This document shows, piece after piece, positions 31,551 through 52,595 of a DNA stretch of 64,000 nt. Below the pieces are notes generated by a model. The model saw only the letters and a list, made by a program, of their open reading frames with translations, did no database searches and was not told where the DNA came from. Numbering within the stretch: position 1 is the stretch's first letter; the number at the start of each line of letters is the position of its first letter. A program made the translations under genes and the position numbers. Origin of the DNA: Giardia intestinalis (lineage: Eukaryota); assembly GCA_000002435.2 (NCBI GenBank), contig CM018792.1, one strand, 5' to 3'.

Positions 31551-31818
31551 GGAGATGGCTGTTAACGTAAGTATTGCAATAGTTAATTAATTTTTCTGTT
31601 TCTGGCCTCAACCCGAGGTCTCTTTAGGATGTCTGTTTACATGTTACACTACTTACTTTCGTTATTCACCTACTAACTCATTTGTTATATCTTCTAATCT
31701 GCAACCTTCGCGTATCAATTGATACTTCAAGCCCTTTTCAGAGCTTACTCCGGGCGCGCCGGGAGGCCTGCGACGGGTGCGAGCCTGCTGACCTGCTGAC
31801 CCGGGTGGAAAGAAAAGG

Positions 31819-32337
31819 ATGGCGTTCAGCTACTTCACGGTCCCGTCTGGCCAGCCCTTCAGGAGGCCGCTGCCCGGCCACGTTGTCGCGCGGCTAGCGC
31901 AGCCCCTCCGGAGGACGCGCTCTGTCGAGGAAGCGGCGGACCGCCGAAGCCAGGCCCTCTGGCGGCGTTCGGAAAAGGCCGGCGAGGTGTACAGAGCGGC
32001 CCGCAAGATCGCCATGAGCAGGCACTTGTTCGACTTTCACGACCGCGCAGTCGCCAAGCACCGCGCAGAAAGGGCGCAGCAGGAGGCAGAGCGCCGAAGG
32101 ACAGCGCTCCTCCAGTGCAAATCCGACGCGATAGCAGCTGGATACAACGAGTGGTACGACGCGCGGGTGTGCAAGGAGGAAGAGGAACACCTATCTAAGT
32201 CAAAGCGCGACAGGTATGGCGGTAAACGGGCAGGCCTCTGGGAAGAGCATCTGATACTCAGCAACGCCTCTATTCGCGTTTCCTCAGTGGGCCCAGCAAG
32301 GGCCCTTTCTGCTCCATATCAGCCAGCGTCTAATTGA
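31819..32337 (+). CDS. Hypothetical 172-aa protein with a basic, coiled-coil-like sequence, in palindrome arm copy 1.
   Basis: An intact ORF that is identical in both arms, Arg/Ala/Glu-rich (RAERAQQEAERRRTALLQ). No homolog was recognised. It may be a genuine small gene carried in the duplicated segment. Confidence 0.3.
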   Translation: MAFSYFTVPSGQPFRRPLPGHVVARLAQPLRRTRSVEEAADRRSQALWRRSEKAGEVYRAARKIAMSRHLFDFHDRAVAKHRAERAQQEAERRRTALLQCKSDAIAAGYNEWYDARVCKEEEEHLSKSKRDRYGGKRAGLWEEHLILSNASIRVSSVGPARALSAPYQPASN

Positions 32338-35300
32338 TGAAAAGTCTTCCTGCAAACCAAGTACTCTATTAAGTGGTTCGTTAGTGAATAGCACCTGTAC
32401 CAAATAGAGAGTTGCATAACGAGCTCAGAGGTTTTCTTCCTCTGTTGAGCCCGTTGCATAGATGAAGTTGGTACGCCTCAATCAGATATCTGAAGTGCCT
32501 CTTTATGAATGTACTCACAGATGCAACTAGAAGAGGTGCATCACACCTGACTCCATGTGTACAGACTTGACGCTATGCAAGATTACTTGACGGAAGTCTT
32601 CAGGGACGCTAGTCATCGGTCTACACGCCAAGGATTAGGAGTCTACATAAGATGCTCTCGCTATACTCTTTTGTATGTTGAAAGGAGCTGATTTCCTAAA
32701 ACACACTGATAAATATCAATAGCTTAAGCTTGAGGCCACAACTCCTCTTTGAACAACAGTCTATCGATGCTCAAGTATGGATTTCTAGAGTATTGATCAC
32801 GATAACCAGGTCTTTGAGATTGTCTTAAATGTCCAACCTTTCTAAAGCGCAGTTTAAATGACTACTAGTTTCCATGGTTTGTAGGCCGTAGTATAGACTT
32901 CGTTGAACTATTATACTTTTCCCATATCCCATAAACGTGCAGAAGGCTACTGTATTCTTGGAAGGGGTGATCTTTCATATATTTCTAAGCACTGAACCGT
33001 GGTTAGGATTGGTGTACAAGGTTATCAGACACACACGATGTCCATATTAAGACGCAGGACTTAAATGCTACAGGCGGCCTCAGAAAGAGCTCTCTGAGGG
33101 AACAAGAAGTGAGGCGACTAATGCACCGAAGATGCTGCGGGCCTCTGTCCACGGAGTGCAAACCCATTACTATGCAATTCGCTACCACAGGCTTCTGTCT
33201 GCGGCGACACAACTACTAGGTGACATCACACTCTGGAAGCTAGTGTGCGGGCTCACGTTGTAAGGTCGGCGGACCGGAGGATGCAGGAGCCACGGGGTAG
33301 TGACTGACCATCATGGCTTCTATAGGCTCTGCGGCTATTAGTACAGGGGCAGGGATGCTGCATCCTGGTGATTGGCCCAGAGCCGCACCATCCAATGGGC
33401 CGACGACCCTCATGTTGTTTCAATCTGAAGCGGCCTCCACTGCTGCCCCCGTACGAGTTGGAGAAGGGGTCGGCCCCATCGAATGCGGCAGAGAACAACA
33501 AGTCCCCAGTCTTCGGGCGAGGAAGATGGGTGATCTCGTCCAGGTGAAGCCGACTCCTCACCGTCCTCTGGGTCCTGCCTCTTCTACCGCCCTGGCACAA
33601 CATAGCTCGGTAGGGGGCGGCGTGTCTGCGCTACAGGACGCGTCGTCAAGAAAGAGTGGGCCTGGAGAGGCCCGACGGCCACCGCTGGGATAGGCCTCAG
33701 AAGCCCTTGGCTGCAGGATACGCTACTGCCAGGGTCAGTGCAGGCTATGGCTTTGAGGAAGCGCAGGACTGACGGGCGCTATCAGGAAACACCTGGCACG
33801 TTCTCGTGGAGAGGGGGACTCAGGCTTGGGGGCTTGGCAGTGTCGGGCCCGGGCTGGGTAGAGAGCTTGCTGTACCCGGAAGTGAAGACCCCAGCAAGCA
33901 GGAATAGTGGCCACAGCCAGTACAGCCGGCGGGTCGACCCGGGCCTCTTCAGCCGCGCTTGATGGAGCCCGACGTTGCGCCAGGCGACGGGACAGGGCAC
34001 CGGCCGTCTCTAGGGCATGCAGGAGGCGAGGCTTGTGAGCCCATGGGCGTCTGGCCTGCAAGCTGAGGCCACATCGGTGACGAGGCCCAGAGTGACGCAG
34101 CGTGGACGCTCTGTGGTGACGGGCCTGACAATGAGTGCAGCAAAGTTATGGGAATGGGCTCCGTCTGGGTCAGGACCTCAGAGTTCTCTTCGTCGTAAGG
34201 AAGAATAGGGCAGTGCGGTATAAGGGAGGCATCCGGCAAGATATGCTGGGAAACTGGCCCGTTGCGGTAAGTCACGGGCGCTGCCAAACACGGCGTCTCT
34301 TCTCTTAGACAGAAGACAGGCAGAATGGGTGACTGCGGAGGCTGCAGTGTCCGTGGTAGATCGCGGCATCGCAATGCGGCTGGGTCCGTGCCGGTGTGTC
34401 TGCCCGGACTCTAAGTGCGCTCTGAGGATCACCTGCTGATGGGCTGGAAGGCCCGAGAAGTGATGTGCTGCCCCTGTCATTGCGGGCAGCGCCCCGTGAC
34501 ACGCACTCGAGCCAGGGCCTCCTGGTGGCCAGAAGCAGAGCAGAGGCAGACGGCCGGTCGTGCATCCGTCCGGGCGGCTCACTGCATGTAGAGCGAAGAA
34601 GACCACTTGCGCCGCTCGGGTTATCGCTCAGCATCAAGTGCGGATGGAAGGCTGGGCCCGGCAACCAGGGCACCGACCTGTACGCTCCTGTCAGCCATCC
34701 CAGGCCGGCCAGAAGCCAGGCTCGACAGGCAGTGCAAAAGCCAGGGAAGCCAGCGTGATCATCGGGCCCGCGTTTGAATGCTAAAAAACTTGGGCGGCGA
34801 TGGCGACTGTCGTCTTCCTGGGAGGGCGCCTCTTCGCACAGGGTCAGCCGTCCTGGCCCTGCATGCTGGGTGCGCGGCTCGAGGGCGCGCTATGCTAGTT
34901 GAGGGCCTGCCAGGCGCTGCAGCCTACGAATAGCACGGACGGATGCAACGGGGTGTCCGAGCAGTGCACTGTCTTTGTCCCAGAGAGCTGTGGTTCTAAC
35001 CATGCGCCCTACACCAGCTCGGCATACCCCTGCTGCTTCCGCTGCTGGTCTGTCTGCCACTTGTTTATTATAGCGGGGGCGCATACGCTTGGGGTGTCGC
35101 CTAGGCACTGTAGTGGTCTTCTCTGACGGTGCGTGTATATTCACATGATGGCCGATGGGTGGAGCGGCTGCCTGATCTCCGAGCTCTCATTGCAACAAGG
35201 CGGGGCGTCGGCTGTCTACACGCCTCTAAGCGAGCCCGCGACCTCTGTGCAGATGCCTGCTCGCCGCGCTCCATAGTGACGGCTGTACACCCAGAAGGGG

Positions 35301-37566
35301 CTGCAGAATCCTCCGCTGTCCTTCGATGTGGACCACGGCTTGTGCACAGGCTAGCGACGGGGCCTGCACACTAGCTTCTATGGGCCCAGCCTGCCAGGCA
35401 CCTGGATCACAGTGCACGTCAAGACCGCACACTCGTTTGCATGCTCGCTGCTAATGTTGAACAGGACTGCGAGGGGTCTGTCTCTGGCCATCCTCGCCTT
35501 AGTACCTGGCCCTTGATGACACGCCTCAGTAGAGGATGGTGTCTTCTAAGTGCTCGGAAGACTATCCGTGCATGGCGGTTCCCGGAGAGTCGGTTCGCAC
35601 AGAAAGCGTAGATGTGCCCGGCGGGCTAGTGGGGTAAGGCTGGGGCTACAGAGACTAGCCATTAGTCCGGATTACAGCAGGGACACCTGTAGTGCCTCCT
35701 CGGCTCCTAAGCGTGGAAAGGCCGTAGAACTTGCAGATGAGTTGGAGGCTGCTTTTTGATTTTATGCATTTGCAGCAGAGCAGAGTTTACTGAAGGTCCA
35801 CTTATTCTAAATTCGAGGAGCCTCATCTCTTCCTCACACACGGTGAGATGATCGATTGTAGGGGTGTACTGTGCAAACCGGTGACAGTCAGCGTATCTAT
35901 TATCCAGACGGATACTGCCTGCGTCCTCCTGTGGCAGACCACCACCAGGGCCCCCAATCTACACATCTGTTCTGGCATCTGTCGGGCAATCATCACCTCC
36001 TGTCGAAGGATTGCTATACGTTACACATCTTGAGCCATCCATCGACCAGGTGGTGCCATAAGCTCTTGTCCCCTACTTGTCCACTCAATGCATACTCTGA
36101 GCGCCGCCAGTTGCACTCACGTCTGCACTACTCATCTGGATGCCCCCCACTCTTCAAGAGCACATGCCCGCAGCCGATGCTCCGTATTACAAGAGAAGTC
36201 AGCCGGATCACTGCGCTGTGCATAGCTCTCATAGGCGTGTTGCTATGCGCGCCCAGCCTTTCCACCCGTAGGCCGCCACGCGTTCACATGTGCGCCAGCG
36301 CCGCCGAGCTTTCGTGGTTTCGAGTGGCCCTGATGCATGGAGCGCTTGCGCACAAGTCCTTCCACCACTGACCCAGGCCGACCCCTCGCAAGATCCTTAG
36401 CGGAGTTGCATCCGAGATGTGTGTCTGCGTTGCTGTCCAGGTGCATGTGCCGGCCCTGGTGCTTCTCACAAGCTTGCGAGCATCGAGCTGGCCTCTACCG
36501 AACCGTATCAGAAGTCAGCACCAGGATGTGGTCCCCTCGGTTGGGCTCTGCAGGCTCCCAGAGCTACGCACCAAAGGGCCGTTCTTCTTTGCGCCGTGTA
36601 ACGTAGGGAGATGCACCGAGCTACTACGCCCTCTCCGTGTGGCGTGGTTTACGACGGGGGACGGGATCCCTGTGCTCATTGTCTATCTGCCCAGGGCCAG
36701 CCGCAGCCCGGGTTGAGGATGACAAGCGAAGATCTCCCAGCTCCTTGTCAGCGGGTGGGAGATCCCGCCACTCTAGTACCCACAACAAAGGGTGCCGATC
36801 ACTGGCAGAGGGACACGACACCCAGGCCCCGCTCCTTCCACTGATGGTACCTAATAAGAGACTCCTTTGTCGCCTGCACCAACAACCTCAGGCACCGTGG
36901 GTCAGAGTGCCTCCATAGTGGACAGCGGTAGCACTATGATGATCTGGGGTGATATGAGTCCTGGCTTACTGGCTCAGGAGGCAGCACGCTTTGGGTGGTT
37001 CTTCCCTCTTGTCCAGATCTGGGAGGGCTGGCTGCCTTCCGAGCCCCCTGGCACCTTGTCAGGTGATGGAGTGTCTTAAAGTATTCATTACAAAAGATCA
37101 GAAATAGCGCCATGCATTCCCAATAGATCAGAGGGTCTCACGAGCTACTCTATGCTGATTCACACCTTTCATGGACCCTAGCGACCACTGTAACCTTCTT
37201 TCGGGATCTTGCAAGGGACTGTCCTTGAGTGCGATTCCCCATGACAGCCGGGAGTCGCAGACATAATCCAAAGGGATGAGAGTACTACAGAGGCTGAGAG
37301 GAGAGTGCCGATGCACAGGGGTCCGCAGAGACCCGACTCGTACAGGGAAGGCGTGGAGGCTGGCTCTCCAGGGATGTAGAGCCACCAGGAAAGGAGCCGG
37401 CAGTGGGGCTGAGGGTCAGCAGAGGCACCCGAGCCGTCCTCTGATTGACCGCGAGGCAGCAGGCACATGGGGCGGCATCACCGCTTGTTTTTGGATTTTC
37501 TGCTTCCCTGCGCGTTGTGCAGGGGTCCGTAGTGGGTTGAGTATCACAGGCTACGCACAGCAACGC

Positions 37567-37581
37567 GTTTACTACCTAAGT
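37567..37581 (-). terminator. Extended vsp polyadenylation motif ACTYAGRTAGTRAAY (ACTTAGGTAGTAAAC on the minus strand), just 3' of the left-arm vsp.
   Basis: It is the reverse complement of gtttactacctaagt at 37567-37581, starting 5 nt after the vsp stop codon. This is the conserved 3' signature of Giardia vsp genes. Confidence 0.75.
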
Positions 37582-37585
37582 ACAT

Positions 37586-39811
37586 CTACGCCTTCCCTCT
37601 GCAGATGAACCACCAGCAGAGGAAGCCCACAAGGCCTCCGACGACGACAATGACTGCGACAGAGATCCCCGCGATGGCACCGGTAGAAAGGCCGCTCTTG
37701 TTCGTGCTTCCGTCGGTACTGTCACCATCTTTTATGAGGTAGCAGAGGACGGAGCCACTACCAGCCGATGGAGGGGCGCAGCTAGCGCAGTTGGCGACGC
37801 CGGTGATGGATCCCCCGTCGCTCTTGTCGCATGCTATGCACTTTTCTTTGGACAGGTAGTACCCTGCAGCGCACACCGTGCACTTGGTGGCATCGTTCGC
37901 ATTGCACTCGGAGCACCCAGTGGCGCAGGGAACACACTTCTGAGTGTTACCGCCAGTCTTAGCATATCCAGCCTTGCACGTGTCGCACTGGTCCTGGCTG
38001 GTGCACGTCTTACATCCGGCCGAGCAAGTGGTGAGCGCGCCGTTATCCAGCTTGTACCCGTCGGCCGGAGTCTGACAAGCATCGCTCGCTTCTGCTGCGG
38101 CTAAGCAGACGCTCTTTCCGGGGAACTTGGTCGTCTCATAGCAGCCCCCGTTCATACGAAGAAGCCCGTTGGCGCATTTATTGCAAACACCACTTCCTTG
38201 AGTAGTGCACGTAATGGCCTTTCCGGCCGCCGCCGAGCAGACTCCGTTCTGCGGAAACTGGCCGGCGTCCTTGCACTTGGAGCAGTAGGCCGTGCCATTG
38301 ACCGTCAGCTCGCACTTCTCGCAGTTGTTAGCATTTGGCTCGCATCCTGGTTTGCACGTCCCCGTGTTGCCCTCTCCTTCGTAGCTGAGGGCCTTCTTAG
38401 GCTCGCAGCTCGTACACCCGTTGGAGTTCCCGTTCGCGCACGTCTTACACGAGGTATCGCACTTGGCACAGGCGGCTCCGCTCTTGTAATATCCGTCCTT
38501 GCAGGTATCACACTGTCCGTTCTCGTTGCACAGGAGGCAGTTCTCGACCTCGCACTTCTTGCAGGCCTTCTTGCCCCCCTCGTTGGTGCCCGCGTAGTAG
38601 CCTCCCAGATCTCCGCAGTTATCGATGCACTGGCCCGTGGGCGTGAGGGCCTTAGTGCCCTCGCACTCTGTGCACACCTCCTTGCTTGTCTTCGGCTCAC
38701 TGCATGTCTTGCAGCCGGGGGTGTTGCACTGGGGGTCGGATTTCTTCGTGCACCCGGTGCCCGCGTTGTCGGGAACGTAGCCCTCGACGCACTCACAAAC
38801 GCCAGAGGTCTTTTCCTCGTTGGAGTTCAAGGGGCAGCTTTCAACGCACCCCTTCTTGTTTGGCTGGATCTTCTTATTAGGCCCGCACGTCTTGCAAACC
38901 ACTCCGGTGGGGCCTTTCTCACAAGTGGCGCAGTCCACCGTCCCTCCGGAAGCGCAGGTGTTGCACTCCTTTGCTTCCTTATCAACGTAATGAGTTGCCG
39001 GGCAGCCGTTTGCGTCAACGCACGTGCCAGTTGTGGACTCGTCATCCTTCTTTAGGTACGGCTTGTCATCCTTGCAGGAGGTGCACTTCGCAGCCCCAGT
39101 CTTACAGGTCTTGCATGTCTCAGCGCACTTGCTGCATTTTTTACCGCCCGTTGTATCGACGAAGAACCCTTCAGTGCCGGTGCACTCCTGTTCCGTCACA
39201 CACGACGTCGCGCCCCCGTCCGTCTTAACAATCCTCGCGGTTTGCTGCGCATCAGGGCCGCACGCAGTACACTTAGCAACTCCATTAGCTTGGCTCGTCA
39301 GTGCAGACCCGTCACAGGTAGTGCACCCGGCCACGCCCGTGTATGTCTTATCGCCAAGCGTTATGCCCGTCGCGTCTCCGCACGGTATAACCGACTGGTG
39401 AGAGACATCTGCGCCCGGTGGCACGAAGTATCCTTGCGCGGCTTGTGTGCATTTTCCCTCAGAGGCTTGCGTGCACATGGTCTGTCCGGGCTGCTGGGCT
39501 GCTTCGTAACACCCGCCCTTGTACATGAAAGTCTGACCAGCGCACTGTCCACAGGTCTGATCGGCTGTATTGCCTCCGGAGCTATCTTTACACTTATCTG
39601 TTGCACCATCTTTGCCTACACATTTTCCATTGATAGGAACAGATCCTGCGTCACATTGAGAACAGTACAGCTTATCGCCAATCAGAACGTTACATGCGTC
39701 TGCTGCACAATTAGTGTTATCTGCGCATTGAACTTCCCGCACGTGCTCTGCTACTTTTTCTGCCCATGCAATCTGGATGGCTAGGCCCGCGAATATAAAA
39801 CTACCGAACAT
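37586..39811 (-). CDS. vsp: Variant-specific surface protein (VSP), 741 aa, left-arm copy.
   Basis: Signal peptide MFGSFIFAGLAIQIAWA. About 11 percent Cys, arranged in dozens of CXXC motifs. Two GGCY motifs. A C-terminal transmembrane helix and the invariant cytoplasmic tail CRGKA. The start is ATGTT. The protein is identical to the right-arm copy. Confidence 0.92.
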   Translation of the reverse strand: MFGSFIFAGLAIQIAWAEKVAEHVREVQCADNTNCAADACNVLIGDKLYCSQCDAGSVPINGKCVGKDGATDKCKDSSGGNTADQTCGQCAGQTFMYKGGCYEAAQQPGQTMCTQASEGKCTQAAQGYFVPPGADVSHQSVIPCGDATGITLGDKTYTGVAGCTTCDGSALTSQANGVAKCTACGPDAQQTARIVKTDGGATSCVTEQECTGTEGFFVDTTGGKKCSKCAETCKTCKTGAAKCTSCKDDKPYLKKDDESTTGTCVDANGCPATHYVDKEAKECNTCASGGTVDCATCEKGPTGVVCKTCGPNKKIQPNKKGCVESCPLNSNEEKTSGVCECVEGYVPDNAGTGCTKKSDPQCNTPGCKTCSEPKTSKEVCTECEGTKALTPTGQCIDNCGDLGGYYAGTNEGGKKACKKCEVENCLLCNENGQCDTCKDGYYKSGAACAKCDTSCKTCANGNSNGCTSCEPKKALSYEGEGNTGTCKPGCEPNANNCEKCELTVNGTAYCSKCKDAGQFPQNGVCSAAAGKAITCTTQGSGVCNKCANGLLRMNGGCYETTKFPGKSVCLAAAEASDACQTPADGYKLDNGALTTCSAGCKTCTSQDQCDTCKAGYAKTGGNTQKCVPCATGCSECNANDATKCTVCAAGYYLSKEKCIACDKSDGGSITGVANCASCAPPSAGSGSVLCYLIKDGDSTDGSTNKSGLSTGAIAGISVAVIVVVGGLVGFLCWWFICRGKA

Positions 39812-41069
39812 TAACCAATCTGATAAATTGATAGGAAAAGAATCGCGGTACGTTCAGCCAATCCGTGTGACTGACACACCGCGGAGTATGGTAGCCTGCT
39901 TGGCGATCAGTAATAAAACGGGATCCACTAGTCTTCTTGAATGTTGCTTCACCCCTCACAATCTAGACACAATGATGATCACCCGACCACTTGTGTGGCC
40001 CATTGTCTTGCAGCGCGGAGCCCTACAGTGGCCATCTTCTGAACGACGCCACCCTGCCATTCGCGGAGGGCCCCTCATCCTCCCTCGTTATAGACCGTGG
40101 CAAAAGAGACACAGCAGGCGGCTTGTCCATCTCCGTAAACATCCGAGAGGGCCCTGCCTGTCTGTGTGAGGAGGTTTACTCTTTCCACCGAGGGCGGTTT
40201 TCGACTACTTCCGGCGCATCAGTCGCGTCCGGGCGGTGGCGTGCCGCTGGGGCCTGCCTGCGGCGTGGTCCAGAAGTCTCACGGGTAAGCCTCGCTCAAT
40301 TCCCGGCCAGCCCGGAGGCGAAGGGTGGTCGTGGGTCGCAGTGATAGCCACAGCGGTGGCAAAGAGGGGTCCCCTCCACGTGTGGATCTGGGGTCTCGCG
40401 TTCCTCGGCTGTTCTGCGGGCATGTGCACACAATCGGACCTGAGGCGAAGGAGAGCCCGCGAGGACCCGATCCGCATTACGAACGCAAGATCGTACCTCC
40501 GGACCCCAAACAGCAAGCCGTGAGTCTCTACTTGGGAGACCACTCCGAAGACGCTTGCCCTCTGGCAGGACACACATGCTGGCTCTGTGGCCTACCGTGT
40601 GAGAGCGCCAACAACTAACCGAGCACCTGAGAGAAGCAAACGATGACAGACACAGAGTACCGGGCGACGACAAGCTGATCCTTCCGGCCCAGTACCGAAC
40701 CAGACAGAGCTCGCCATGCTCATCCACCAAGGTGCACCCATGATCGCGAGCATCGAGCAGGCAGGGACTGGGGTCGCTCTTCCCGCTATCAGGGGCCTAG
40801 ACGCCCTGGTGGGAAGCCCCAGAGGACTCAAGCAACACAGTAGAGCAGGCCCAGAGCAAGTCGGACCCAGATCCAGAGAGGGCGAGGCGCCGGATAGCAA
40901 ACAGGGTGAACAACGCGCTGAGCTTCGGGGCAGTTGCTAAGGCTCTCCGCGCCCTTGATGACACGCCCATGGTAGACATCAAGTCGGAGAAGGCCAAGGC
41001 TGCCCTCAGCGCGCTACACCCGTGCGTCCTCCCCGAAGGCTACGTTGGCCTTGACTACCCTCTATCGAT

Positions 41070-42804: not shown

Positions 42805-43657
42805 ACCGAATGAGCCCATCCCTGGGACCTGTCGACAACGATCGAGGGGGGGGCAAAGACTGGACACACAACCGAGTTGAATCCCAACCAGTGGAGAGAG
42901 CCCCGCTAGCTGCTGCTGATCTACATGGACAGTATCGAAAATGACAACAAAGACCAGAGCTTCACCCACCATGAAGGGAGAACAAGGAGAGGCACCCTCA
43001 GTAGAACAGTGAGTCCGTAAGAAAACCTCGAAAAGATCGATGTGCACGCCCGCGGAACAGCCGAGGAACGCGAGACCCCAGATCCACACGTGGAGGGGAC
43101 CCCTCTTTGCCACCGCTGTGGCTATCACTGCGACCCACGACCACCCTTCGCCTCCGGGCTGGCCGGGAATTGAGCGAGGCTTACCCGTGAGACTTCTGGA
43201 CCACGCCGCAGGCAGGCCCCAGCGGCACGCCACCGCCCGGACGCGACTGATGCGCCGGAAGTAGTCGAAAACCGCCCTCGGTGGAAAGAGTAAACCTCCT
43301 CACACAGACAGGCAGGGCCCTCTCGGATGTTTACGGAGATGGACAAGCCGCCTGCTGTGTCTCTTTTGCCACGGTCTATAACGAGGGAGGATGAGGGGCC
43401 CTCCGCGAATGGCAGGGTGGCGTCGTTCAGAAGATGGCCACTGTAGGGCTCCGCGCTGCAAGACAATGGGCCACACAAGTGGTCGGGTGATCATCATTGT
43501 GTCTAGATTGTGAGGGGTGAAGCAACATTCAAGAAGACTAGTGGATCCCGTTTTATTACTGATCGCCAAGCAGGCTACCATACTCCGCGGTGTGTCAGTC
43601 ACACGGATTGGCTGAACGTACCGCGATTCTTTTCCTATCAATTTATCAGATTGGTTA

Positions 43658-45883
43658 ATGTTCGGTAGTTTTATATTCGCGGGCCTAGCCATCCAGATTG
43701 CATGGGCAGAAAAAGTAGCAGAGCACGTGCGGGAAGTTCAATGCGCAGATAACACTAATTGTGCAGCAGACGCATGTAACGTTCTGATTGGCGATAAGCT
43801 GTACTGTTCTCAATGTGACGCAGGATCTGTTCCTATCAATGGAAAATGTGTAGGCAAAGATGGTGCAACAGATAAGTGTAAAGATAGCTCCGGAGGCAAT
43901 ACAGCCGATCAGACCTGTGGACAGTGCGCTGGTCAGACTTTCATGTACAAGGGCGGGTGTTACGAAGCAGCCCAGCAGCCCGGACAGACCATGTGCACGC
44001 AAGCCTCTGAGGGAAAATGCACACAAGCCGCGCAAGGATACTTCGTGCCACCGGGCGCAGATGTCTCTCACCAGTCGGTTATACCGTGCGGAGACGCGAC
44101 GGGCATAACGCTTGGCGATAAGACATACACGGGCGTGGCCGGGTGCACTACCTGTGACGGGTCTGCACTGACGAGCCAAGCTAATGGAGTTGCTAAGTGT
44201 ACTGCGTGCGGCCCTGATGCGCAGCAAACCGCGAGGATTGTTAAGACGGACGGGGGCGCGACGTCGTGTGTGACGGAACAGGAGTGCACCGGCACTGAAG
44301 GGTTCTTCGTCGATACAACGGGCGGTAAAAAATGCAGCAAGTGCGCTGAGACATGCAAGACCTGTAAGACTGGGGCTGCGAAGTGCACCTCCTGCAAGGA
44401 TGACAAGCCGTACCTAAAGAAGGATGACGAGTCCACAACTGGCACGTGCGTTGACGCAAACGGCTGCCCGGCAACTCATTACGTTGATAAGGAAGCAAAG
44501 GAGTGCAACACCTGCGCTTCCGGAGGGACGGTGGACTGCGCCACTTGTGAGAAAGGCCCCACCGGAGTGGTTTGCAAGACGTGCGGGCCTAATAAGAAGA
44601 TCCAGCCAAACAAGAAGGGGTGCGTTGAAAGCTGCCCCTTGAACTCCAACGAGGAAAAGACCTCTGGCGTTTGTGAGTGCGTCGAGGGCTACGTTCCCGA
44701 CAACGCGGGCACCGGGTGCACGAAGAAATCCGACCCCCAGTGCAACACCCCCGGCTGCAAGACATGCAGTGAGCCGAAGACAAGCAAGGAGGTGTGCACA
44801 GAGTGCGAGGGCACTAAGGCCCTCACGCCCACGGGCCAGTGCATCGATAACTGCGGAGATCTGGGAGGCTACTACGCGGGCACCAACGAGGGGGGCAAGA
44901 AGGCCTGCAAGAAGTGCGAGGTCGAGAACTGCCTCCTGTGCAACGAGAACGGACAGTGTGATACCTGCAAGGACGGATATTACAAGAGCGGAGCCGCCTG
45001 TGCCAAGTGCGATACCTCGTGTAAGACGTGCGCGAACGGGAACTCCAACGGGTGTACGAGCTGCGAGCCTAAGAAGGCCCTCAGCTACGAAGGAGAGGGC
45101 AACACGGGGACGTGCAAACCAGGATGCGAGCCAAATGCTAACAACTGCGAGAAGTGCGAGCTGACGGTCAATGGCACGGCCTACTGCTCCAAGTGCAAGG
45201 ACGCCGGCCAGTTTCCGCAGAACGGAGTCTGCTCGGCGGCGGCCGGAAAGGCCATTACGTGCACTACTCAAGGAAGTGGTGTTTGCAATAAATGCGCCAA
45301 CGGGCTTCTTCGTATGAACGGGGGCTGCTATGAGACGACCAAGTTCCCCGGAAAGAGCGTCTGCTTAGCCGCAGCAGAAGCGAGCGATGCTTGTCAGACT
45401 CCGGCCGACGGGTACAAGCTGGATAACGGCGCGCTCACCACTTGCTCGGCCGGATGTAAGACGTGCACCAGCCAGGACCAGTGCGACACGTGCAAGGCTG
45501 GATATGCTAAGACTGGCGGTAACACTCAGAAGTGTGTTCCCTGCGCCACTGGGTGCTCCGAGTGCAATGCGAACGATGCCACCAAGTGCACGGTGTGCGC
45601 TGCAGGGTACTACCTGTCCAAAGAAAAGTGCATAGCATGCGACAAGAGCGACGGGGGATCCATCACCGGCGTCGCCAACTGCGCTAGCTGCGCCCCTCCA
45701 TCGGCTGGTAGTGGCTCCGTCCTCTGCTACCTCATAAAAGATGGTGACAGTACCGACGGAAGCACGAACAAGAGCGGCCTTTCTACCGGTGCCATCGCGG
45801 GGATCTCTGTCGCAGTCATTGTCGTCGTCGGAGGCCTTGTGGGCTTCCTCTGCTGGTGGTTCATCTGCAGAGGGAAGGCGTAG
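43658..45883 (+). CDS. vsp: Variant-specific surface protein (VSP), 741 aa, right-arm copy. Its amino-acid sequence is identical to the left-arm vsp.
   Basis: The features match those of 37586-39811, including the CRGKA terminus. It is transcribed away from the palindrome centre. Confidence 0.92.
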   Translation: MFGSFIFAGLAIQIAWAEKVAEHVREVQCADNTNCAADACNVLIGDKLYCSQCDAGSVPINGKCVGKDGATDKCKDSSGGNTADQTCGQCAGQTFMYKGGCYEAAQQPGQTMCTQASEGKCTQAAQGYFVPPGADVSHQSVIPCGDATGITLGDKTYTGVAGCTTCDGSALTSQANGVAKCTACGPDAQQTARIVKTDGGATSCVTEQECTGTEGFFVDTTGGKKCSKCAETCKTCKTGAAKCTSCKDDKPYLKKDDESTTGTCVDANGCPATHYVDKEAKECNTCASGGTVDCATCEKGPTGVVCKTCGPNKKIQPNKKGCVESCPLNSNEEKTSGVCECVEGYVPDNAGTGCTKKSDPQCNTPGCKTCSEPKTSKEVCTECEGTKALTPTGQCIDNCGDLGGYYAGTNEGGKKACKKCEVENCLLCNENGQCDTCKDGYYKSGAACAKCDTSCKTCANGNSNGCTSCEPKKALSYEGEGNTGTCKPGCEPNANNCEKCELTVNGTAYCSKCKDAGQFPQNGVCSAAAGKAITCTTQGSGVCNKCANGLLRMNGGCYETTKFPGKSVCLAAAEASDACQTPADGYKLDNGALTTCSAGCKTCTSQDQCDTCKAGYAKTGGNTQKCVPCATGCSECNANDATKCTVCAAGYYLSKEKCIACDKSDGGSITGVANCASCAPPSAGSGSVLCYLIKDGDSTDGSTNKSGLSTGAIAGISVAVIVVVGGLVGFLCWWFICRGKA

Positions 45884-45887
45884 ATGT

Positions 45888-45902
45888 ACTTAGGTAGTAA
45901 AC
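45888..45902 (+). terminator. Extended vsp polyadenylation motif ACTYAGRTAGTRAAY (ACTTAGGTAGTAAAC), 3' of the right-arm vsp.
   Basis: The sequence reads tag atgt ACTTAGGTAGTAAAC gcg, starting 5 nt after the stop codon. Confidence 0.75.
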
Positions 45903-48900
45903 GCGTTGCTGTGCGTAGCCTGTGATACTCAACCCACTACGGACCCCTGCACAACGCGCAGGGAAGCAGAAAATCCAAAAACAAGCGGTGATGCCGCCCC
46001 ATGTGCCTGCTGCCTCGCGGTCAATCAGAGGACGGCTCGGGTGCCTCTGCTGACCCTCAGCCCCACTGCCGGCTCCTTTCCTGGTGGCTCTACATCCCTG
46101 GAGAGCCAGCCTCCACGCCTTCCCTGTACGAGTCGGGTCTCTGCGGACCCCCGTGCATCGGCGCTCTCCTCTCAGCCTCTGTAGTACTCTCATCCCTTTG
46201 GATTATGTCTGCGACTCCCGGCTGTCATGGGGAATCGCACTCAAGGACAGTCCCTTGCAAGATCCCGAAAGAAGGTTACAGTGGTCGCTAGGGTCCATGA
46301 AAGGTGTGAATCAGCATAGAGTAGCTCGTGAGACCCTCTGATCTATTGGGAATGCATGGCGCTATTTCTGATCTTTTGTAATGAATACTTTAAGACACTC
46401 CATCACCTGACAAGGTGCCAGGGGGCTCGGAAGGCAGCCAGCCCTCCCAGATCTGGACAAGAGGGAAGAACCACCCAAAGCGTGCTGCCTCCTGAGCCAG
46501 TAAGCCAGGACTCATATCACCCCAGATCATCATAGTGCTACCGCTGTCCACTATGGAGGCACTCTGACCCACGGTGCCTGAGGTTGTTGGTGCAGGCGAC
46601 AAAGGAGTCTCTTATTAGGTACCATCAGTGGAAGGAGCGGGGCCTGGGTGTCGTGTCCCTCTGCCAGTGATCGGCACCCTTTGTTGTGGGTACTAGAGTG
46701 GCGGGATCTCCCACCCGCTGACAAGGAGCTGGGAGATCTTCGCTTGTCATCCTCAACCCGGGCTGCGGCTGGCCCTGGGCAGATAGACAATGAGCACAGG
46801 GATCCCGTCCCCCGTCGTAAACCACGCCACACGGAGAGGGCGTAGTAGCTCGGTGCATCTCCCTACGTTACACGGCGCAAAGAAGAACGGCCCTTTGGTG
46901 CGTAGCTCTGGGAGCCTGCAGAGCCCAACCGAGGGGACCACATCCTGGTGCTGACTTCTGATACGGTTCGGTAGAGGCCAGCTCGATGCTCGCAAGCTTG
47001 TGAGAAGCACCAGGGCCGGCACATGCACCTGGACAGCAACGCAGACACACATCTCGGATGCAACTCCGCTAAGGATCTTGCGAGGGGTCGGCCTGGGTCA
47101 GTGGTGGAAGGACTTGTGCGCAAGCGCTCCATGCATCAGGGCCACTCGAAACCACGAAAGCTCGGCGGCGCTGGCGCACATGTGAACGCGTGGCGGCCTA
47201 CGGGTGGAAAGGCTGGGCGCGCATAGCAACACGCCTATGAGAGCTATGCACAGCGCAGTGATCCGGCTGACTTCTCTTGTAATACGGAGCATCGGCTGCG
47301 GGCATGTGCTCTTGAAGAGTGGGGGGCATCCAGATGAGTAGTGCAGACGTGAGTGCAACTGGCGGCGCTCAGAGTATGCATTGAGTGGACAAGTAGGGGA
47401 CAAGAGCTTATGGCACCACCTGGTCGATGGATGGCTCAAGATGTGTAACGTATAGCAATCCTTCGACAGGAGGTGATGATTGCCCGACAGATGCCAGAAC
47501 AGATGTGTAGATTGGGGGCCCTGGTGGTGGTCTGCCACAGGAGGACGCAGGCAGTATCCGTCTGGATAATAGATACGCTGACTGTCACCGGTTTGCACAG
47601 TACACCCCTACAATCGATCATCTCACCGTGTGTGAGGAAGAGATGAGGCTCCTCGAATTTAGAATAAGTGGACCTTCAGTAAACTCTGCTCTGCTGCAAA
47701 TGCATAAAATCAAAAAGCAGCCTCCAACTCATCTGCAAGTTCTACGGCCTTTCCACGCTTAGGAGCCGAGGAGGCACTACAGGTGTCCCTGCTGTAATCC
47801 GGACTAATGGCTAGTCTCTGTAGCCCCAGCCTTACCCCACTAGCCCGCCGGGCACATCTACGCTTTCTGTGCGAACCGACTCTCCGGGAACCGCCATGCA
47901 CGGATAGTCTTCCGAGCACTTAGAAGACACCATCCTCTACTGAGGCGTGTCATCAAGGGCCAGGTACTAAGGCGAGGATGGCCAGAGACAGACCCCTCGC
48001 AGTCCTGTTCAACATTAGCAGCGAGCATGCAAACGAGTGTGCGGTCTTGACGTGCACTGTGATCCAGGTGCCTGGCAGGCTGGGCCCATAGAAGCTAGTG
48101 TGCAGGCCCCGTCGCTAGCCTGTACACAAGCCGTGGTCCACATCGAAGGACAGCGGAGGATTCTGCAGCCCCTTCTGGGTGTACAGCCGTCACTATGGAG
48201 CGCGGCGAGCAGGCATCTGCACAGAGGTCGCGGGCTCGCTTAGAGGCGTGTAGACAGCCGACGCCCCGCCTTGTTGCAATGAGAGCTCGGAGATCAGGCA
48301 GCCGCTCCACCCATCGGCCATCATGTGAATATACACGCACCGTCAGAGAAGACCACTACAGTGCCTAGGCGACACCCCAAGCGTATGCGCCCCCGCTATA
48401 ATAAACAAGTGGCAGACAGACCAGCAGCGGAAGCAGCAGGGGTATGCCGAGCTGGTGTAGGGCGCATGGTTAGAACCACAGCTCTCTGGGACAAAGACAG
48501 TGCACTGCTCGGACACCCCGTTGCATCCGTCCGTGCTATTCGTAGGCTGCAGCGCCTGGCAGGCCCTCAACTAGCATAGCGCGCCCTCGAGCCGCGCACC
48601 CAGCATGCAGGGCCAGGACGGCTGACCCTATGCGAAGAGGCGCCCTCCCAGGAAGACGACAGTCGCCATCGCCGCCCAAGTTTTTTAGCATTCAAACGCG
48701 GGCCCGATGATCACGCTGGCTTCCCTGGCTTTTGCACTGCCTGTCGAGCCTGGCTTCTGGCCGGCCTGGGATGGCTGACAGGAGCGTACAGGTCGGTGCC
48801 CTGGTTGCCGGGCCCAGCCTTCCATCCGCACTTGATGCTGAGCGATAACCCGAGCGGCGCAAGTGGTCTTCTTCGCTCTACATGCAGTGAGCCGCCCGGA

Positions 48901-51131
48901 CGGATGCACGACCGGCCGTCTGCCTCTGCTCTGCTTCTGGCCACCAGGAGGCCCTGGCTCGAGTGCGTGTCACGGGGCGCTGCCCGCAATGACAGGGGCA
49001 GCACATCACTTCTCGGGCCTTCCAGCCCATCAGCAGGTGATCCTCAGAGCGCACTTAGAGTCCGGGCAGACACACCGGCACGGACCCAGCCGCATTGCGA
49101 TGCCGCGATCTACCACGGACACTGCAGCCTCCGCAGTCACCCATTCTGCCTGTCTTCTGTCTAAGAGAAGAGACGCCGTGTTTGGCAGCGCCCGTGACTT
49201 ACCGCAACGGGCCAGTTTCCCAGCATATCTTGCCGGATGCCTCCCTTATACCGCACTGCCCTATTCTTCCTTACGACGAAGAGAACTCTGAGGTCCTGAC
49301 CCAGACGGAGCCCATTCCCATAACTTTGCTGCACTCATTGTCAGGCCCGTCACCACAGAGCGTCCACGCTGCGTCACTCTGGGCCTCGTCACCGATGTGG
49401 CCTCAGCTTGCAGGCCAGACGCCCATGGGCTCACAAGCCTCGCCTCCTGCATGCCCTAGAGACGGCCGGTGCCCTGTCCCGTCGCCTGGCGCAACGTCGG
49501 GCTCCATCAAGCGCGGCTGAAGAGGCCCGGGTCGACCCGCCGGCTGTACTGGCTGTGGCCACTATTCCTGCTTGCTGGGGTCTTCACTTCCGGGTACAGC
49601 AAGCTCTCTACCCAGCCCGGGCCCGACACTGCCAAGCCCCCAAGCCTGAGTCCCCCTCTCCACGAGAACGTGCCAGGTGTTTCCTGATAGCGCCCGTCAG
49701 TCCTGCGCTTCCTCAAAGCCATAGCCTGCACTGACCCTGGCAGTAGCGTATCCTGCAGCCAAGGGCTTCTGAGGCCTATCCCAGCGGTGGCCGTCGGGCC
49801 TCTCCAGGCCCACTCTTTCTTGACGACGCGTCCTGTAGCGCAGACACGCCGCCCCCTACCGAGCTATGTTGTGCCAGGGCGGTAGAAGAGGCAGGACCCA
49901 GAGGACGGTGAGGAGTCGGCTTCACCTGGACGAGATCACCCATCTTCCTCGCCCGAAGACTGGGGACTTGTTGTTCTCTGCCGCATTCGATGGGGCCGAC
50001 CCCTTCTCCAACTCGTACGGGGGCAGCAGTGGAGGCCGCTTCAGATTGAAACAACATGAGGGTCGTCGGCCCATTGGATGGTGCGGCTCTGGGCCAATCA
50101 CCAGGATGCAGCATCCCTGCCCCTGTACTAATAGCCGCAGAGCCTATAGAAGCCATGATGGTCAGTCACTACCCCGTGGCTCCTGCATCCTCCGGTCCGC
50201 CGACCTTACAACGTGAGCCCGCACACTAGCTTCCAGAGTGTGATGTCACCTAGTAGTTGTGTCGCCGCAGACAGAAGCCTGTGGTAGCGAATTGCATAGT
50301 AATGGGTTTGCACTCCGTGGACAGAGGCCCGCAGCATCTTCGGTGCATTAGTCGCCTCACTTCTTGTTCCCTCAGAGAGCTCTTTCTGAGGCCGCCTGTA
50401 GCATTTAAGTCCTGCGTCTTAATATGGACATCGTGTGTGTCTGATAACCTTGTACACCAATCCTAACCACGGTTCAGTGCTTAGAAATATATGAAAGATC
50501 ACCCCTTCCAAGAATACAGTAGCCTTCTGCACGTTTATGGGATATGGGAAAAGTATAATAGTTCAACGAAGTCTATACTACGGCCTACAAACCATGGAAA
50601 CTAGTAGTCATTTAAACTGCGCTTTAGAAAGGTTGGACATTTAAGACAATCTCAAAGACCTGGTTATCGTGATCAATACTCTAGAAATCCATACTTGAGC
50701 ATCGATAGACTGTTGTTCAAAGAGGAGTTGTGGCCTCAAGCTTAAGCTATTGATATTTATCAGTGTGTTTTAGGAAATCAGCTCCTTTCAACATACAAAA
50801 GAGTATAGCGAGAGCATCTTATGTAGACTCCTAATCCTTGGCGTGTAGACCGATGACTAGCGTCCCTGAAGACTTCCGTCAAGTAATCTTGCATAGCGTC
50901 AAGTCTGTACACATGGAGTCAGGTGTGATGCACCTCTTCTAGTTGCATCTGTGAGTACATTCATAAAGAGGCACTTCAGATATCTGATTGAGGCGTACCA
51001 ACTTCATCTATGCAACGGGCTCAACAGAGGAAGAAAACCTCTGAGCTCGTTATGCAACTCTCTATTTGGTACAGGTGCTATTCACTAACGAACCACTTAA
51101 TAGAGTACTTGGTTTGCAGGAAGACTTTTCA

Positions 51132-51650
51132 TCAATTAGACGCTGGCTGATATGGAGCAGAAAGGGCCCTTGCTGGGCCCACTGAGGAAACGCGAATAGA
51201 GGCGTTGCTGAGTATCAGATGCTCTTCCCAGAGGCCTGCCCGTTTACCGCCATACCTGTCGCGCTTTGACTTAGATAGGTGTTCCTCTTCCTCCTTGCAC
51301 ACCCGCGCGTCGTACCACTCGTTGTATCCAGCTGCTATCGCGTCGGATTTGCACTGGAGGAGCGCTGTCCTTCGGCGCTCTGCCTCCTGCTGCGCCCTTT
51401 CTGCGCGGTGCTTGGCGACTGCGCGGTCGTGAAAGTCGAACAAGTGCCTGCTCATGGCGATCTTGCGGGCCGCTCTGTACACCTCGCCGGCCTTTTCCGA
51501 ACGCCGCCAGAGGGCCTGGCTTCGGCGGTCCGCCGCTTCCTCGACAGAGCGCGTCCTCCGGAGGGGCTGCGCTAGCCGCGCGACAACGTGGCCGGGCAGC
51601 GGCCTCCTGAAGGGCTGGCCAGACGGGACCGTGAAGTAGCTGAACGCCAT
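51132..51650 (-). CDS. Hypothetical 172-aa protein in palindrome arm copy 2, identical to 31819-32337.
   Basis: The mirror twin of the left-arm ORF, with identical translation. Confidence 0.3.
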   Translation of the reverse strand: MAFSYFTVPSGQPFRRPLPGHVVARLAQPLRRTRSVEEAADRRSQALWRRSEKAGEVYRAARKIAMSRHLFDFHDRAVAKHRAERAQQEAERRRTALLQCKSDAIAAGYNEWYDARVCKEEEEHLSKSKRDRYGGKRAGLWEEHLILSNASIRVSSVGPARALSAPYQPASN

Positions 51651-51854
51651 CCTTTTCTTTCCACCCGGGTCAGCAGGTCAGCAGGCTCGCACCCGTCGCA
51701 GGCCTCCCGGCGCGCCCGGAGTAAGCTTTGGGGATGCCCACATTTCAGAAGTATTCAAATCCTAACTACATTACATAGTCATAATCTCAATACGAAGAAA
51801 CAGTCGGCCTACTAAGTTACCAATGGACGTACCAAGCAAGTTAATGGGAGCTAT

Positions 51855-52595
51855 TCACTTTGTGAAGGTCTTAGAAAAGTATTCCTTCTTCTTTTCGGGA
51901 TCAGGAATAATGAAGTCGTTCTTCTCAGGAGTCCAGCCGCACGGGATGACACCGCCGGTTTTATCAGCGTACTGGAAGGCCTGAATCATACGCATAGCTT
52001 CTTCGACAGAGCGACCCACAGGAAAATCGTTAATTGTAACATGGCGTACAATTCCTTTATCGGAGACGATAAACATGGCACGCAGAGCAAGACCCATTTC
52101 CTCAACGAGTATGCCAAAATCACGTGCCATCTTATGATTCGTGTCGGCGAATAGATCACATTTGCAGGGCCCGATCCCCCCGTCTGTCTTATTCTGAAGG
52201 CACCAAGCGTGGTGGCTATAAACAGTGTCTGTCGAGCCAATGATAATCTCAGTGTTATACTTCTTCTTCAGTTGCTCAGCCATAGAGGAAAAATGAATGA
52301 TCTCAGAGGGACAGACAAAGGTGAAGTCGGCTGGATAGAAGAAGATGATCAGATATTTGCCCTTGTAATCTGCAAGCTTACGCTTAGTAAACTTGAGTTC
52401 AGGGGTAAGGACCTCCACTTCAAAGTCGGGACAAGGGGTGCCTGGAATGGGAACGGAACTGGTTGTCTTGAGCTGCATGCAGACTTCTGTGTCGCCAAAC
52501 TTCTCACACTTATCAGGTATGCACGTATTCTTATTCACGGTCAGCGTACAAGCAGCCGCAAAGGCAACCGAGATAAGACATATCAGCAGTAGCAT
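51855..52595 (-). CDS. 2-Cys peroxiredoxin (thioredoxin peroxidase) with a predicted N-terminal signal peptide. The start is called at MLLLICLISVAFAAA; the ORF could extend to 52739.
   Basis: Peroxidatic Cys motif FTFVCPSEI. Resolving Cys region GGVIPCGWTP. Thioredoxin-fold core (KYLIIFFYPADF...). A hydrophobic leader lies ahead of the catalytic domain. Confidence 0.8.
   Translation of the reverse strand: MLLLICLISVAFAAACTLTVNKNTCIPDKCEKFGDTEVCMQLKTTSSVPIPGTPCPDFEVEVLTPELKFTKRKLADYKGKYLIIFFYPADFTFVCPSEIIHFSSMAEQLKKKYNTEIIIGSTDTVYSHHAWCLQNKTDGGIGPCKCDLFADTNHKMARDFGILVEEMGLALRAMFIVSDKGIVRHVTINDFPVGRSVEEAMRMIQAFQYADKTGGVIPCGWTPEKNDFIIPDPEKKKEYFSKTFTK

Follow-up and report, generated by a model that had tools for sequence, protein, structure and literature searches.

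The window, a 64,000-nt stretch of the Giardia intestinalis WB genome, harbours on chromosome 4 a 20 kb inverted segmental duplication that is real and interstitial. Its left arm (31739..40424) and right arm (43045..51730), each 8,686 nt long, are reverse complements of one another with seven mismatches and no indels, and they enclose a unique core of 2,620 nt; a repeat search of the window reported this inverted pair only. Compared base by base on the axis start+end=83469, the arms are 99.92% identical. Three of the mismatches (31741, 40415, and 40422) lie no more than 10 nt from an arm end, and the four interior ones (34839, 35345, 37306, and 37317) are all transitions within a non-coding tract. 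With the arm ends excluded (31742-40414), four mismatches in 8,673 nt correspond to 99.95% identity. At both arm ends, outside the arms and into the core, identity drops from 100% to the random level of about 25% inside one 100-nt bin. The longest inverted match arising from chance in 64 kb is estimated at about 16 nt.

Two genes in unique sequence, both outside the repeat and both on the minus strand, border the structure. The left flank carries a zf-CHY protein gene (30147..31550; 467 aa; Pfam zf-CHY, E 3.3e-13) lying 189 nt from the arm, and the right flank carries a peroxiredoxin gene (51855..52595; 246 aa from the first ATG) lying 125 nt from it, with matches to Pfam AhpC-TSA (E 3.1e-31) and 1-cysPrx_C and a hydrophobic N-terminus. 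Orthologues of the CHY gene sit among the same neighbours in four non-A Giardia lineages. The outermost gene of the arms encodes a 172-aa protein, identical in the left (31819..32337, plus strand) and right (51132..51650, minus strand) copies, and begins 80 nt inside the left arm. This gene, ORF172, has homologues with 73-79% amino acid identity in other Giardia lineages and a dN/dS of 0.10-0.16; its product has no Pfam match. It is followed by an AT-rich non-coding stretch (32338..33117; GC 0.42), at whose last position, 33117, all but one of the WB short-read contigs stop. Beyond it lies a GC-rich non-coding tract of about 4.5 kb per arm (33118..37585, mirrored at 45884..50351; GC 0.595, range 0.53-0.66), which carries all four interior mismatches. 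Searches of this tract gave no Pfam match in six frames and no Rfam match, codon periodicity is absent (2.1 versus 33.9 for the vsp gene), and neither similarity to the VSP or the reverse transcriptase (RT) core nor internal repeats were found.

The innermost gene of each arm is a complete vsp gene (37586..39811, minus strand; 43658..45883, plus strand) encoding an identical 741-aa protein (Pfam VSP, E 1.6e-140) with a signal peptide, CXXC motifs, and a CRGKA tail. The two ORFs show zero mismatches and are divergent (head-to-head), with start codons 3,846 nt apart. An Inr, TAATGTT, sits at the start codon, and the 5' flank (39812..40196) separates it from a retroelement terminal repeat. The first-pass annotation had described a ~20 kb near-perfect palindrome with arms over 99.9% identical, each holding a complete vsp gene, a GC-rich tract, and a 172-aa ORF, around a unique centre with a dead retrotransposon and between the CHY and peroxiredoxin genes. 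Comparison of the window with its own reverse complement bears this out, showing collinear inverted arms and boundaries that differ from the earlier coordinates by only 1-2 nt. The arm contents agree with Pfam matches, mirror ORF pairs, and the GC profile, and the retrotransposon with a frameshifted reverse transcriptase in the core. Mirror ORF pairs obey start+end=83469, the axis also used for the base-by-base comparison.

The palindrome is the already published vsp162.1/162.2 pair (GL50803_111936/111933). Table 5 of Adam 2010 (BMC Genomics 11:424) lists vsp162 as head-to-head with 3847 nt spacing, and the supplement of that paper gives 162.1/162.2 as an identical head-to-head pair of 741 aa on chromosome 4 with the same Inr; Table 2 of Xu 2020 (Sci Data 7:38) gives 111933/111936 as divergent genes of 741 aa on chromosome 4, 3846 bp apart with a pseudo-RT between them. 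The assignment follows from this agreement in protein length, orientation, 3846-3847 spacing, RT remnant, chromosome, and Inr. The earlier suggestion of an exceptional new feature therefore does not stand, as the locus is a catalogued member of a documented class, the identical inverted VSP pairs, with about 20 in WB and others in G. muris. Members of this class have identical ORFs in inverted orientation and flanks that are identical up to an abrupt divergence (Adam 2010; Xu 2020; bioRxiv 10.1101/2022.03.07.483299), and retrotransposon remnants are published as frequent between members of head-to-head pairs. Only the inner (5') divergence point is tabulated in these publications; for vsp162 it is 561 nt, versus the 603-613 nt measured here, and Adam 2010 leaves the 3' divergence of vsp162 blank, the contigs having ended in the repeat. 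We found that the arms continue for 5.85 kb after the vsp stop codon, taking in a second, conserved gene. This outward extension and the coincidence of the inner arm ends with retrotransposon terminal inverted repeats both appear to go beyond the accounts of the pair cited here.

The unique core (40425..43044, plus strand) is the internal part of a dead non-LTR retrotransposon, with an RT remnant at about 41169-41901 spread over three reading frames. When the three frames were joined in a frameshift-repaired translation, RVT_1 matched with E 6.7e-23 and 81.9 bits (cut-off 29.6), and R2 retrotransposon proteins were the top solved-structure matches (E 7e-7). The translation of 42302-42799 contains a KPD-x12-D motif and found no match in Pfam and PDB searches; it is possibly a remnant of a restriction-enzyme-like PD...D endonuclease. 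All 19 database homologues of the core come from Giardia, and all 19 are fragments of 78-212 aa. We compared the core with three solitary copies from isolate DH (L014, L015, and L016), to which it is 91.7-93.9% identical. When the four copies are aligned, the gap runs number 14-21 per sequence and most have lengths that are not multiples of 3; every copy is degenerate, and the core element carries 2.9% private substitutions. The family is presumably GilD or Genie 2.

The solitary copies also end in inverted repeats, measuring 186 nt (100% identity), 170 nt (98%) plus 34 nt, and 137 nt (96%) plus 36 nt, and these are homologous to window positions 40234-40430 and 43039-43235. In an alignment of all eight ends, the column at which left and right ends diverge on the inner side is common to all four copies and coincides with the point where the 8.7-kb arms end on the inside; at its outer limit the left terminal repeat differs among copies. 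Two of the three solitary copies have target-site duplications of 15-17 nt outside the repeats (TGCCGATTGTAGAGAG and TCTACAGTCAAACCATA), and an uninterrupted paralogue of the target site was found for one. The shared divergence column, the position of the target-site duplications, and this paralogue together indicate that the terminal repeats belong to the element. In the window they occupy the innermost part of each arm (40197..40424 and its mirror, 43045..43272), with an outer limit that is approximate, since identity to the DH repeats is only about 73-75%; the secure homology on the left is 40234-40430. The family thus has terminal inverted repeats of roughly 200 nt (~140-230 nt). The 8.7-kb arms are continuous with them and share their inner end point exactly, so that each arm consists of about 0.23 kb of element repeat and about 8.46 kb of host DNA. 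As to gene conversion, the short repeats give mixed evidence: the terminal arms of L015 are identical where private substitution rates would predict about 6-7 differences, and those of L014 and L016 can be explained without it. Weak inverted homology (74% over 112 nt) also flanks L015 symmetrically, at a distance of about 660 nt from either end.

We consider it probable that the vsp162.1/162.2 duplication, centred on this dead R2-like retrotransposon, grew outward from its terminal repeats, an order of events drawn from one locus and three solitary copies. The element's short inverted repeat would have nucleated the palindrome, when a 3' end that had broken or stalled within one terminal repeat paired with the other repeat. 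Synthesis proceeding outward would then have added an inverted copy of about 8.5 kb of the opposite flank, followed by rejoining, a process akin to inverted-repeat expansion by break repair or template switching. The outer junctions show neither a target-site duplication nor clear microhomology. Of the two arms, the one on the CHY side is probably original and the one on the Prx side its copy, because the adjacency of CHY and ORF172 is conserved in other Giardia lineages: in a non-A lineage the region upstream of CHY joins the region upstream of ORF172 directly (L019 versus L020/L021). A retroelement repeat cannot account for VSP palindromes in general, since G. muris has identical inverted VSP pairs yet almost no retrotransposons and the 12-13 tail-to-tail pairs of WB have no annotated RT between their members.

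Such retroelement-free pairs, in G. muris and in WB (Adam 2010; Xu 2020), lend some weight to the reverse order, in which the palindrome arose by the general VSP-pair process and the retrotransposon later inserted into its centre or spacer. The inverted homology around L015 would likewise fit a preference for insertion between inverted repeats. However, the vsp162 arms pass without a break into the terminal repeat on either side, leaving no remnant of a unique spacer and no direct target-site duplication, and the insertion would need to have struck exactly the axis of a spacer-less 17-kb palindrome or to have been followed by homogenisation. The solitary copies, moreover, sit in ordinary non-palindromic sites with normal target-site duplications, and we regard this order as unlikely. 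Lower still is the probability of a single-step origin, in which target-primed reverse transcription or a second-strand event went awry and copied the 3' end and downstream host DNA, inverted, onto the 5' side. The 5' end of the element does repeat its 3' end in inverted form, and the left repeat has a variable outer limit among copies. Against this, all four copies have the same junction between left repeat and core, which points to an inherited repeat and makes the variable limit ordinary 5' truncation. A single step would also make the Prx-side arm the original, contrary to the CHY-ORF172 adjacency in other lineages, and it would need later homogenisation in any case, the element carrying 2.9% private substitutions where the arms differ by 0.05%.

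That the arms are 99.95% identical may mean that the event was recent, that arm-to-arm gene conversion is still under way, or both. There is a modest chance that the palindrome is old: before assemblages A, B, and C/D split, it would have grown from the terminal repeats, or at least its ORF172-containing outer part would have been duplicated, and continuous intrachromosomal gene conversion would since have held the arms at 99.95% identity. It would then resemble a Y-chromosome palindrome, but in a tetraploid and putatively asexual protist, and its outer boundary, about 80 nt upstream of a conserved gene, would itself be conserved. Inversion of the core and arm-to-arm conversion are both plausible at the locus; the two core orientations give identical junction sequences, and telling them apart takes reads of more than about 9 kb with anchors in the unique flanks. 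The contigs obtained from other isolates were single ones, collapsed or partial. The fragility of inverted repeats is known to depend on the spacer, and with one of 2.6 kb, cruciform extrusion or hairpin fold-back, which the first-pass annotation had raised, would be unlikely.

We saw no evidence of a dedicated function for the palindrome. A selected role, in which it protects vsp162 and ORF172 through intrachromosomal gene conversion or feeds double-stranded RNA into VSP silencing, is very improbable. The four interior mismatches are all non-coding and the gene copies identical, but four are too few for their location to be informative when the tract makes up half of the arm. In four non-A lineages the contigs all end close to the homologous outer boundary, a hint of an old duplication, although such breaks may have other causes, such as a GC-rich motif. 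Judging by orientation, head-to-head vsp transcription would run away from the core and would not by itself produce a hairpin RNA.

Near-perfect palindromes with arms of such extreme identity are a known class of assembly artefact, but a fold-back chimera or a mis-joined collapsed repeat with a single real arm is scarcely credible here and is rejected, given that both outer junctions occur in independent short-read contigs, that the head-to-head pair with 3847-nt spacing was already present in the 2007 Sanger assembly and appears again in the PacBio assembly, and that the arms differ at seven positions. The CHY flank-arm junction is found in six of these contigs and the Prx flank-arm junction in five, each 100% identical to the window, and two further contigs terminate 32 nt into the arm, as a repeat boundary would lead one to expect. 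The PacBio assembly as a whole was checked against optical maps (Xu 2020).

The duplication leaves the genome with two identical copies each of one VSP gene and of the 172-aa gene, as well as a substrate for core inversion. Such arms put mapping and assembly at risk; neither reads nor small RNAs nor edits directed at vsp162 or the 172-aa gene can be attributed to a single copy, and earlier assemblies broke inside such VSP repeats. The vsp162 locus therefore offers a clean, fully resolved example of how the identical inverted VSP pairs of Giardia are built. If the coincidence of arm end and terminal repeat holds at the other retroelement-containing head-to-head pairs, namely 50229/d50229, d112801/112801, and 119706/119707, it would provide a concrete, testable origin for head-to-head VSP duplications and, if general, link mobile-element relics to the expansion of the antigenic-variation repertoire.

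Several known systems bear comparison with this structure. The human Y-chromosome palindromes P1-P8, which reportedly undergo arm-to-arm gene conversion, likewise have arms over 99.9% identical, a unique spacer, and gene pairs in the arms, whereas the arms at vsp162 are shorter by a factor of 10-1000 and enclose a transposon relic as spacer, and their conversion is hypothetical. Boundary shifts of the plastid inverted repeat, and the inverted duplications that template switching mediated by inverted repeats is said to produce in human and yeast genomes, resemble the vsp162 locus in having a short prior inverted repeat at the inner end of far longer, almost identical arms and unique flanks outside; the likeness is one of mechanism only, no intermediate, polymorphic state, or junction signature having been found at the vsp162 locus. 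GilD and Genie 2 are reportedly a dead non-LTR family of Giardia, and the inverted terminal repeats of Genie 2 are said to reach about 172 bp. An endonuclease remnant after the RT may be common to both. Shared with this family are an RT, uniformly degenerate copies, solitary copies with terminal inverted repeats and target-site duplications, and a chromosome-internal, gene-poor, VSP-adjacent setting, GilD having been found in gene-poor regions beside VSPs (PMC2861651). What sets the window copy apart is that its inverted termini run on into 8.5 kb of duplicated host DNA.

The palindrome consists of a single inverted pair, which an inverted-repeat search of 28-56 kb placed at 31739-40424 and 43045-51730, with arms of 8,686 nt and a spacing of 2,620 nt. 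When every base was compared across the symmetry axis (start + end = 83469), the arms differed by 7 mismatches and 0 indels, and mirror identity just outside the arms and across the core was ~25 %, the random level. Four interior mismatches (34839, 35345, 37306, and 37317) are all non-coding transitions, giving a divergence of 4/8,673 positions (0.05 %), and the others (31741, 40415, and 40422) each lie no more than 10 nt from an arm end. The ORFs of 31.8-51.7 kb are all present as mirror pairs. The first-pass annotation, which had described 8.7-kb inverted arms around a 2.6-kb core and ORF pairs obeying the same axis, was thus right in both respects, its coordinates to 1-2 nt. Two of the seven mismatches, 40415 and 40422 (mirror 43054 and 43047), are clustered within 10 nt of the core, as would be predicted if arm-to-arm homogenisation tapers off towards the core. 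No tandem or internal repeats were found within the arm or core, and the core shows no nucleotide similarity to the arms or the remainder of the window.

From the outside inward, each arm comprises 80 nt of upstream sequence, the 172-aa ORF (31819-32337 / 51132-51650), a 780-nt AT-rich stretch, a 4.47-kb GC-rich tract (33118-37585 / 45884-50351; 59.5 % GC), a complete 741-aa VSP gene (37586-39811, minus strand / 43658-45883, plus strand; Pfam VSP, E 1.6e-140), and 613 nt of vsp 5' flank. A signal peptide, CXXC motifs, and a CRGKA tail are all present in the VSP protein, and 3,846 nt separate the start codons of the two genes, which lie head-to-head. Outside the arms, Pfam identified a zf-CHY gene on the left, at 189 nt, and a peroxiredoxin gene on the right, at 125 nt. 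Arm contents and flanking genes are therefore those originally proposed. The peroxiredoxin ORF (51855-52739) includes a 48-codon upstream extension starting at GTG; from its first ATG (52595) the protein is 246 aa, with a hydrophobic, signal-peptide-like N-terminus (MLLLICLISVAFAAAC). A look-up of the exact VSP sequence in other assemblies returned no record, and no Rfam family was found in 31000-44000. The GC-rich tract is non-coding. We considered a decayed VSP, RT, or other gene and rejected this, as the tract has no Pfam match in six frames, no similarity to VSP or RT/core peptides, and no codon periodicity (signal of 2.1 vs 33.9 for the vsp gene).

To the possibility of a fold-back assembly chimera, raised in the first-pass annotation, short-read contigs gave a clear answer. 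An exact-protein look-up across many sequencing runs recovered contigs identical or nearly identical to the window, six of which (L001, L004-L008) are continuous from the CHY side into the arm and five (L009-L013) from the peroxiredoxin side. Two more (L002, L003) end 32 nt inside the arm, as anticipated if the edge of a repeat creates a branch in the assembly graph. The inner configuration was observed in the Sanger era, and the PacBio assembly as a whole was verified against optical maps. Taken with the junction contigs, this indicates that both arms are real, and we reject the chimera. With a single exception, which extends to 33198, the WB short-read contigs entering the arm end exactly at 33117 (mirror 50352), the border between the AT-rich stretch and the GC-rich tract. 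In the reference, this position has no repeat and no difference between the arms. The contigs may stop there because the sequence recurs at higher copy number elsewhere in the genome, because haplotypes differ in structure, or, if RNA-seq runs are among those sampled, because a transcript ends.

The 172-aa ORF encodes an Arg/Glu-rich product without a Pfam domain. Its homologues in other Giardia lineages share 73-79 % protein identity, with a dN/dS of 0.10-0.16 and a dS of ~0.8 for WB vs a non-A lineage, and by these comparisons it behaves like a real conserved gene that was co-duplicated with the vsp. Its database homologues are all unnamed and lack both NCBI and UniRef records, so the gene is perhaps unannotated in public Giardia annotations. 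No relatives were found in JGI metagenomes.

As had been proposed, the core contains a dead retrotransposon. Its reverse transcriptase lies on the plus strand, split over three reading frames, and when joined conceptually matches RVT_1 (E 6.7e-23), with R2 retrotransposon proteins as its closest solved relatives. A KPD-x12-D motif downstream is a candidate remnant of a restriction-enzyme-like endonuclease; neither Pfam nor a comparison with solved structures gave a match. The 19 database homologues of the reverse transcriptase are all short Giardia fragments, 76-92 % identical with one exception at 42 %, and the family therefore appears dead. The element may belong to the GilD / Genie 2 family. 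Genie 2, a dead Giardia element, was reportedly described by Burke et al. in 2002 with inverted terminal repeats of up to ~172 bp; the literature we consulted does not quote these repeats.

Three further copies of the element were recovered from isolate DH (GCA_000498715.1; contigs L014, L015, and L016), none of them located between VSPs. Their alignments to the window cover 40398-43011/43032, and that of L015 covers 40236-43235. In a four-copy alignment, the internal parts were 91.7-93.9 % identical between the DH copies and the window core and among the DH copies themselves, with 14-21 gap runs per sequence, mostly not multiples of 3, and private substitutions of 1.5-2.9 %. In isolate DH, L016 1-1225 corresponds to window 1225-1 (99.5 %), and the element at L016 8566-11678 lies ~7.3 kb beyond the window's left end on the opposite strand, so that this chromosomal neighbourhood holds at least two copies.

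The solitary copies end in inverted repeats of their own: 186 nt at 100 % in L015, 170 nt at 98 % plus 34 nt more in L014, and 137 nt at 96 % plus 36 nt more in L016. These termini are homologous to the innermost ~190 nt of the window arms. When the eight ends were aligned together, the left and right sequences of all four copies diverged at one common column, which marks the inner limit of the 8.7-kb arms. The arms thus begin at the retroelement's own inverted termini, which is an addition of this analysis. The outer end of the left repeat is shortened in L015 and L016, and the repeat-core join falls at the same point in every copy; because this junction is constant, the left repeat is an inherited part of the element with ordinary 5' truncation rather than one remade at each insertion. 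Direct target-site duplications lie outside the repeats in two solitary copies (TGCCGATTGTAGAGAG in L015 and TCTACAGTCAAACCATA in L016), and the L015 target has an uninterrupted paralogue elsewhere. L015 8729-8805 and 11985-12570 are jointly homologous (80-82 %) to a single unbroken stretch, L014 8232-8876, in inverted orientation; this empty-site paralogue directly abuts the L014 element copy. Such an arrangement suggests that the family inserted into or beside repeated sequence. L015 also carries a 112-nt inverted homology (8040-8145 / 12639-12749; 74 %) placed symmetrically ~660 nt outside each element end, which could represent either the decayed remains of an outer inverted repeat or gene fragments that are paralogous by chance.

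The locus itself has been catalogued. Xu et al. 2020 (PMC7000408, Table 2) list the WB chromosome 4 pair 111933/111936 (<- ->, 741 aa, 3846 bp apart) with a reverse-transcriptase pseudogene between the genes, and our locus agrees with every one of these values. Adam et al. 2010 (PMC2996952) give vsp162 as a head-to-head pair with an inter-ORF distance of 3847 nt, and their supplement identifies 162.1/162.2 as GL50803_111936/111933, identical head-to-head genes of 741 aa on chromosome 4 with the initiator TAATGTT, which is present in the window. Identical inverted VSP pairs numbered 14 in 2010 and 19-20 in the newer assembly. Four pairs (50229, 112801, 111933, and 119706) contain an RT remnant. 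Hypothetical genes duplicated alongside neighbouring VSPs have been noted, and head-to-head pairs are known with retrotransposon relics between them (bioRxiv 10.1101/2022.03.07.483299), and GilD elements adjoin VSPs in gene-poor regions (PMC2861651). G. muris has seven identical inverted VSP pairs, yet very few retrotransposons (PMC7641422). The palindrome is real and striking, but belongs to a known class and is not exceptional. In Adam et al. 2010 (PMC2996952) the 3' divergence point of vsp162 is blank, contigs having stopped within such repeats, and the published descriptions we found do not give the full extent of the arms. Neither gene number occurs in the supplements of Pollo et al. 2020, which thus list no called structural variant here. 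To this record we add precise limits for the arms, evidence that the GC-rich tract is non-coding, a conserved, co-duplicated and apparently unannotated 172-aa gene, and the position of the arm ends at the terminal inverted repeats of the dead retroelement.

The high identity of the arms may stem from a recent event or from gene conversion. Evidence for conversion from the short terminal repeats is mixed: the L015 repeat arms are identical vs ~6-7 differences predicted from private substitution rates, and those of L014 and L016 can be explained without conversion. CHY contigs of four non-A lineages (L020 1-217, L021 1-194, L022 1-223, and L023 1-248) end 25-100 nt upstream of the 172-aa ORF start, a position that in WB corresponds to the outer arm boundary. 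Two contigs bearing the ORF (L017/L018, 1-103) start at that position, and L019, a short contig of one non-A lineage, parallels the ~1.4-kb arm contig pattern in WB. These coinciding ends hint at a repeat boundary conserved across assemblages, and hence at an old structure; alternatively, a GC-rich motif at the boundary could break the non-A assemblies. We consider it rather doubtful that the palindrome is ancient and its arms kept alike by conversion. Inverted-repeat fragility drops steeply as the spacer lengthens, and on this dependence the cruciform extrusion and fold-back hairpins suggested earlier are unlikely with a 2.6-kb spacer. Arm-to-arm recombination, as core inversion or conversion, is a realistic process. 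Core-inversion isomers would share junction sequences and are thus detectable only with reads >9 kb anchored in the unique flanks.

We lean modestly towards a palindrome that grew specifically from the element's terminal repeats. In each arm, ~0.23 kb of element terminus passes without a break into 8.46 kb of host DNA, with no unique remnant or direct target-site duplication between the two, which makes nucleation at the terminal repeats the simplest reading. The outer palindrome junctions show no convincing target-site duplication or microhomology. From this structure, we infer an order of events and a repair mechanism in which the short inverted repeat of the retroelement would nucleate the palindrome. 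In this scheme, a 3' end left by a break or stall within one terminus would pair with the other, DNA synthesis would proceed outward and copy the opposite flank in inverted form, and the copied end would rejoin close to the peroxiredoxin gene. The CHY-side arm is probably the original, since the regions upstream of the CHY gene and of the 172-aa ORF are directly continuous in a non-A lineage (L019 vs L020/L021). Two other non-A lineages (ERR33333xx runs), which probably correspond to the dog assemblages C and D of PMC6939161, also have CHY contigs that extend to the ORF-upstream region.

A retroelement inserted into a pre-existing VSP palindrome stays in contention, given the retroelement-free VSP pairs of WB and G. 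muris and the weak symmetric inverted homology outside L015, but it needs insertion exactly on the axis or homogenisation afterwards. Formation in one step during retrotransposition fits poorly with an inherited repeat-core junction, a CHY side that looks ancestral, and private substitutions of 2.9 % in the element vs 0.05 % divergence between the arms. Nothing supports retention of the palindrome for a selected function. Growth from the terminal repeats, in turn, has possible counterparts in other systems. Inverted repeats expand by break repair in plastid genomes, and inverted repeats mediate template switching in other eukaryotes; the mechanism proposed here may be analogous to both.
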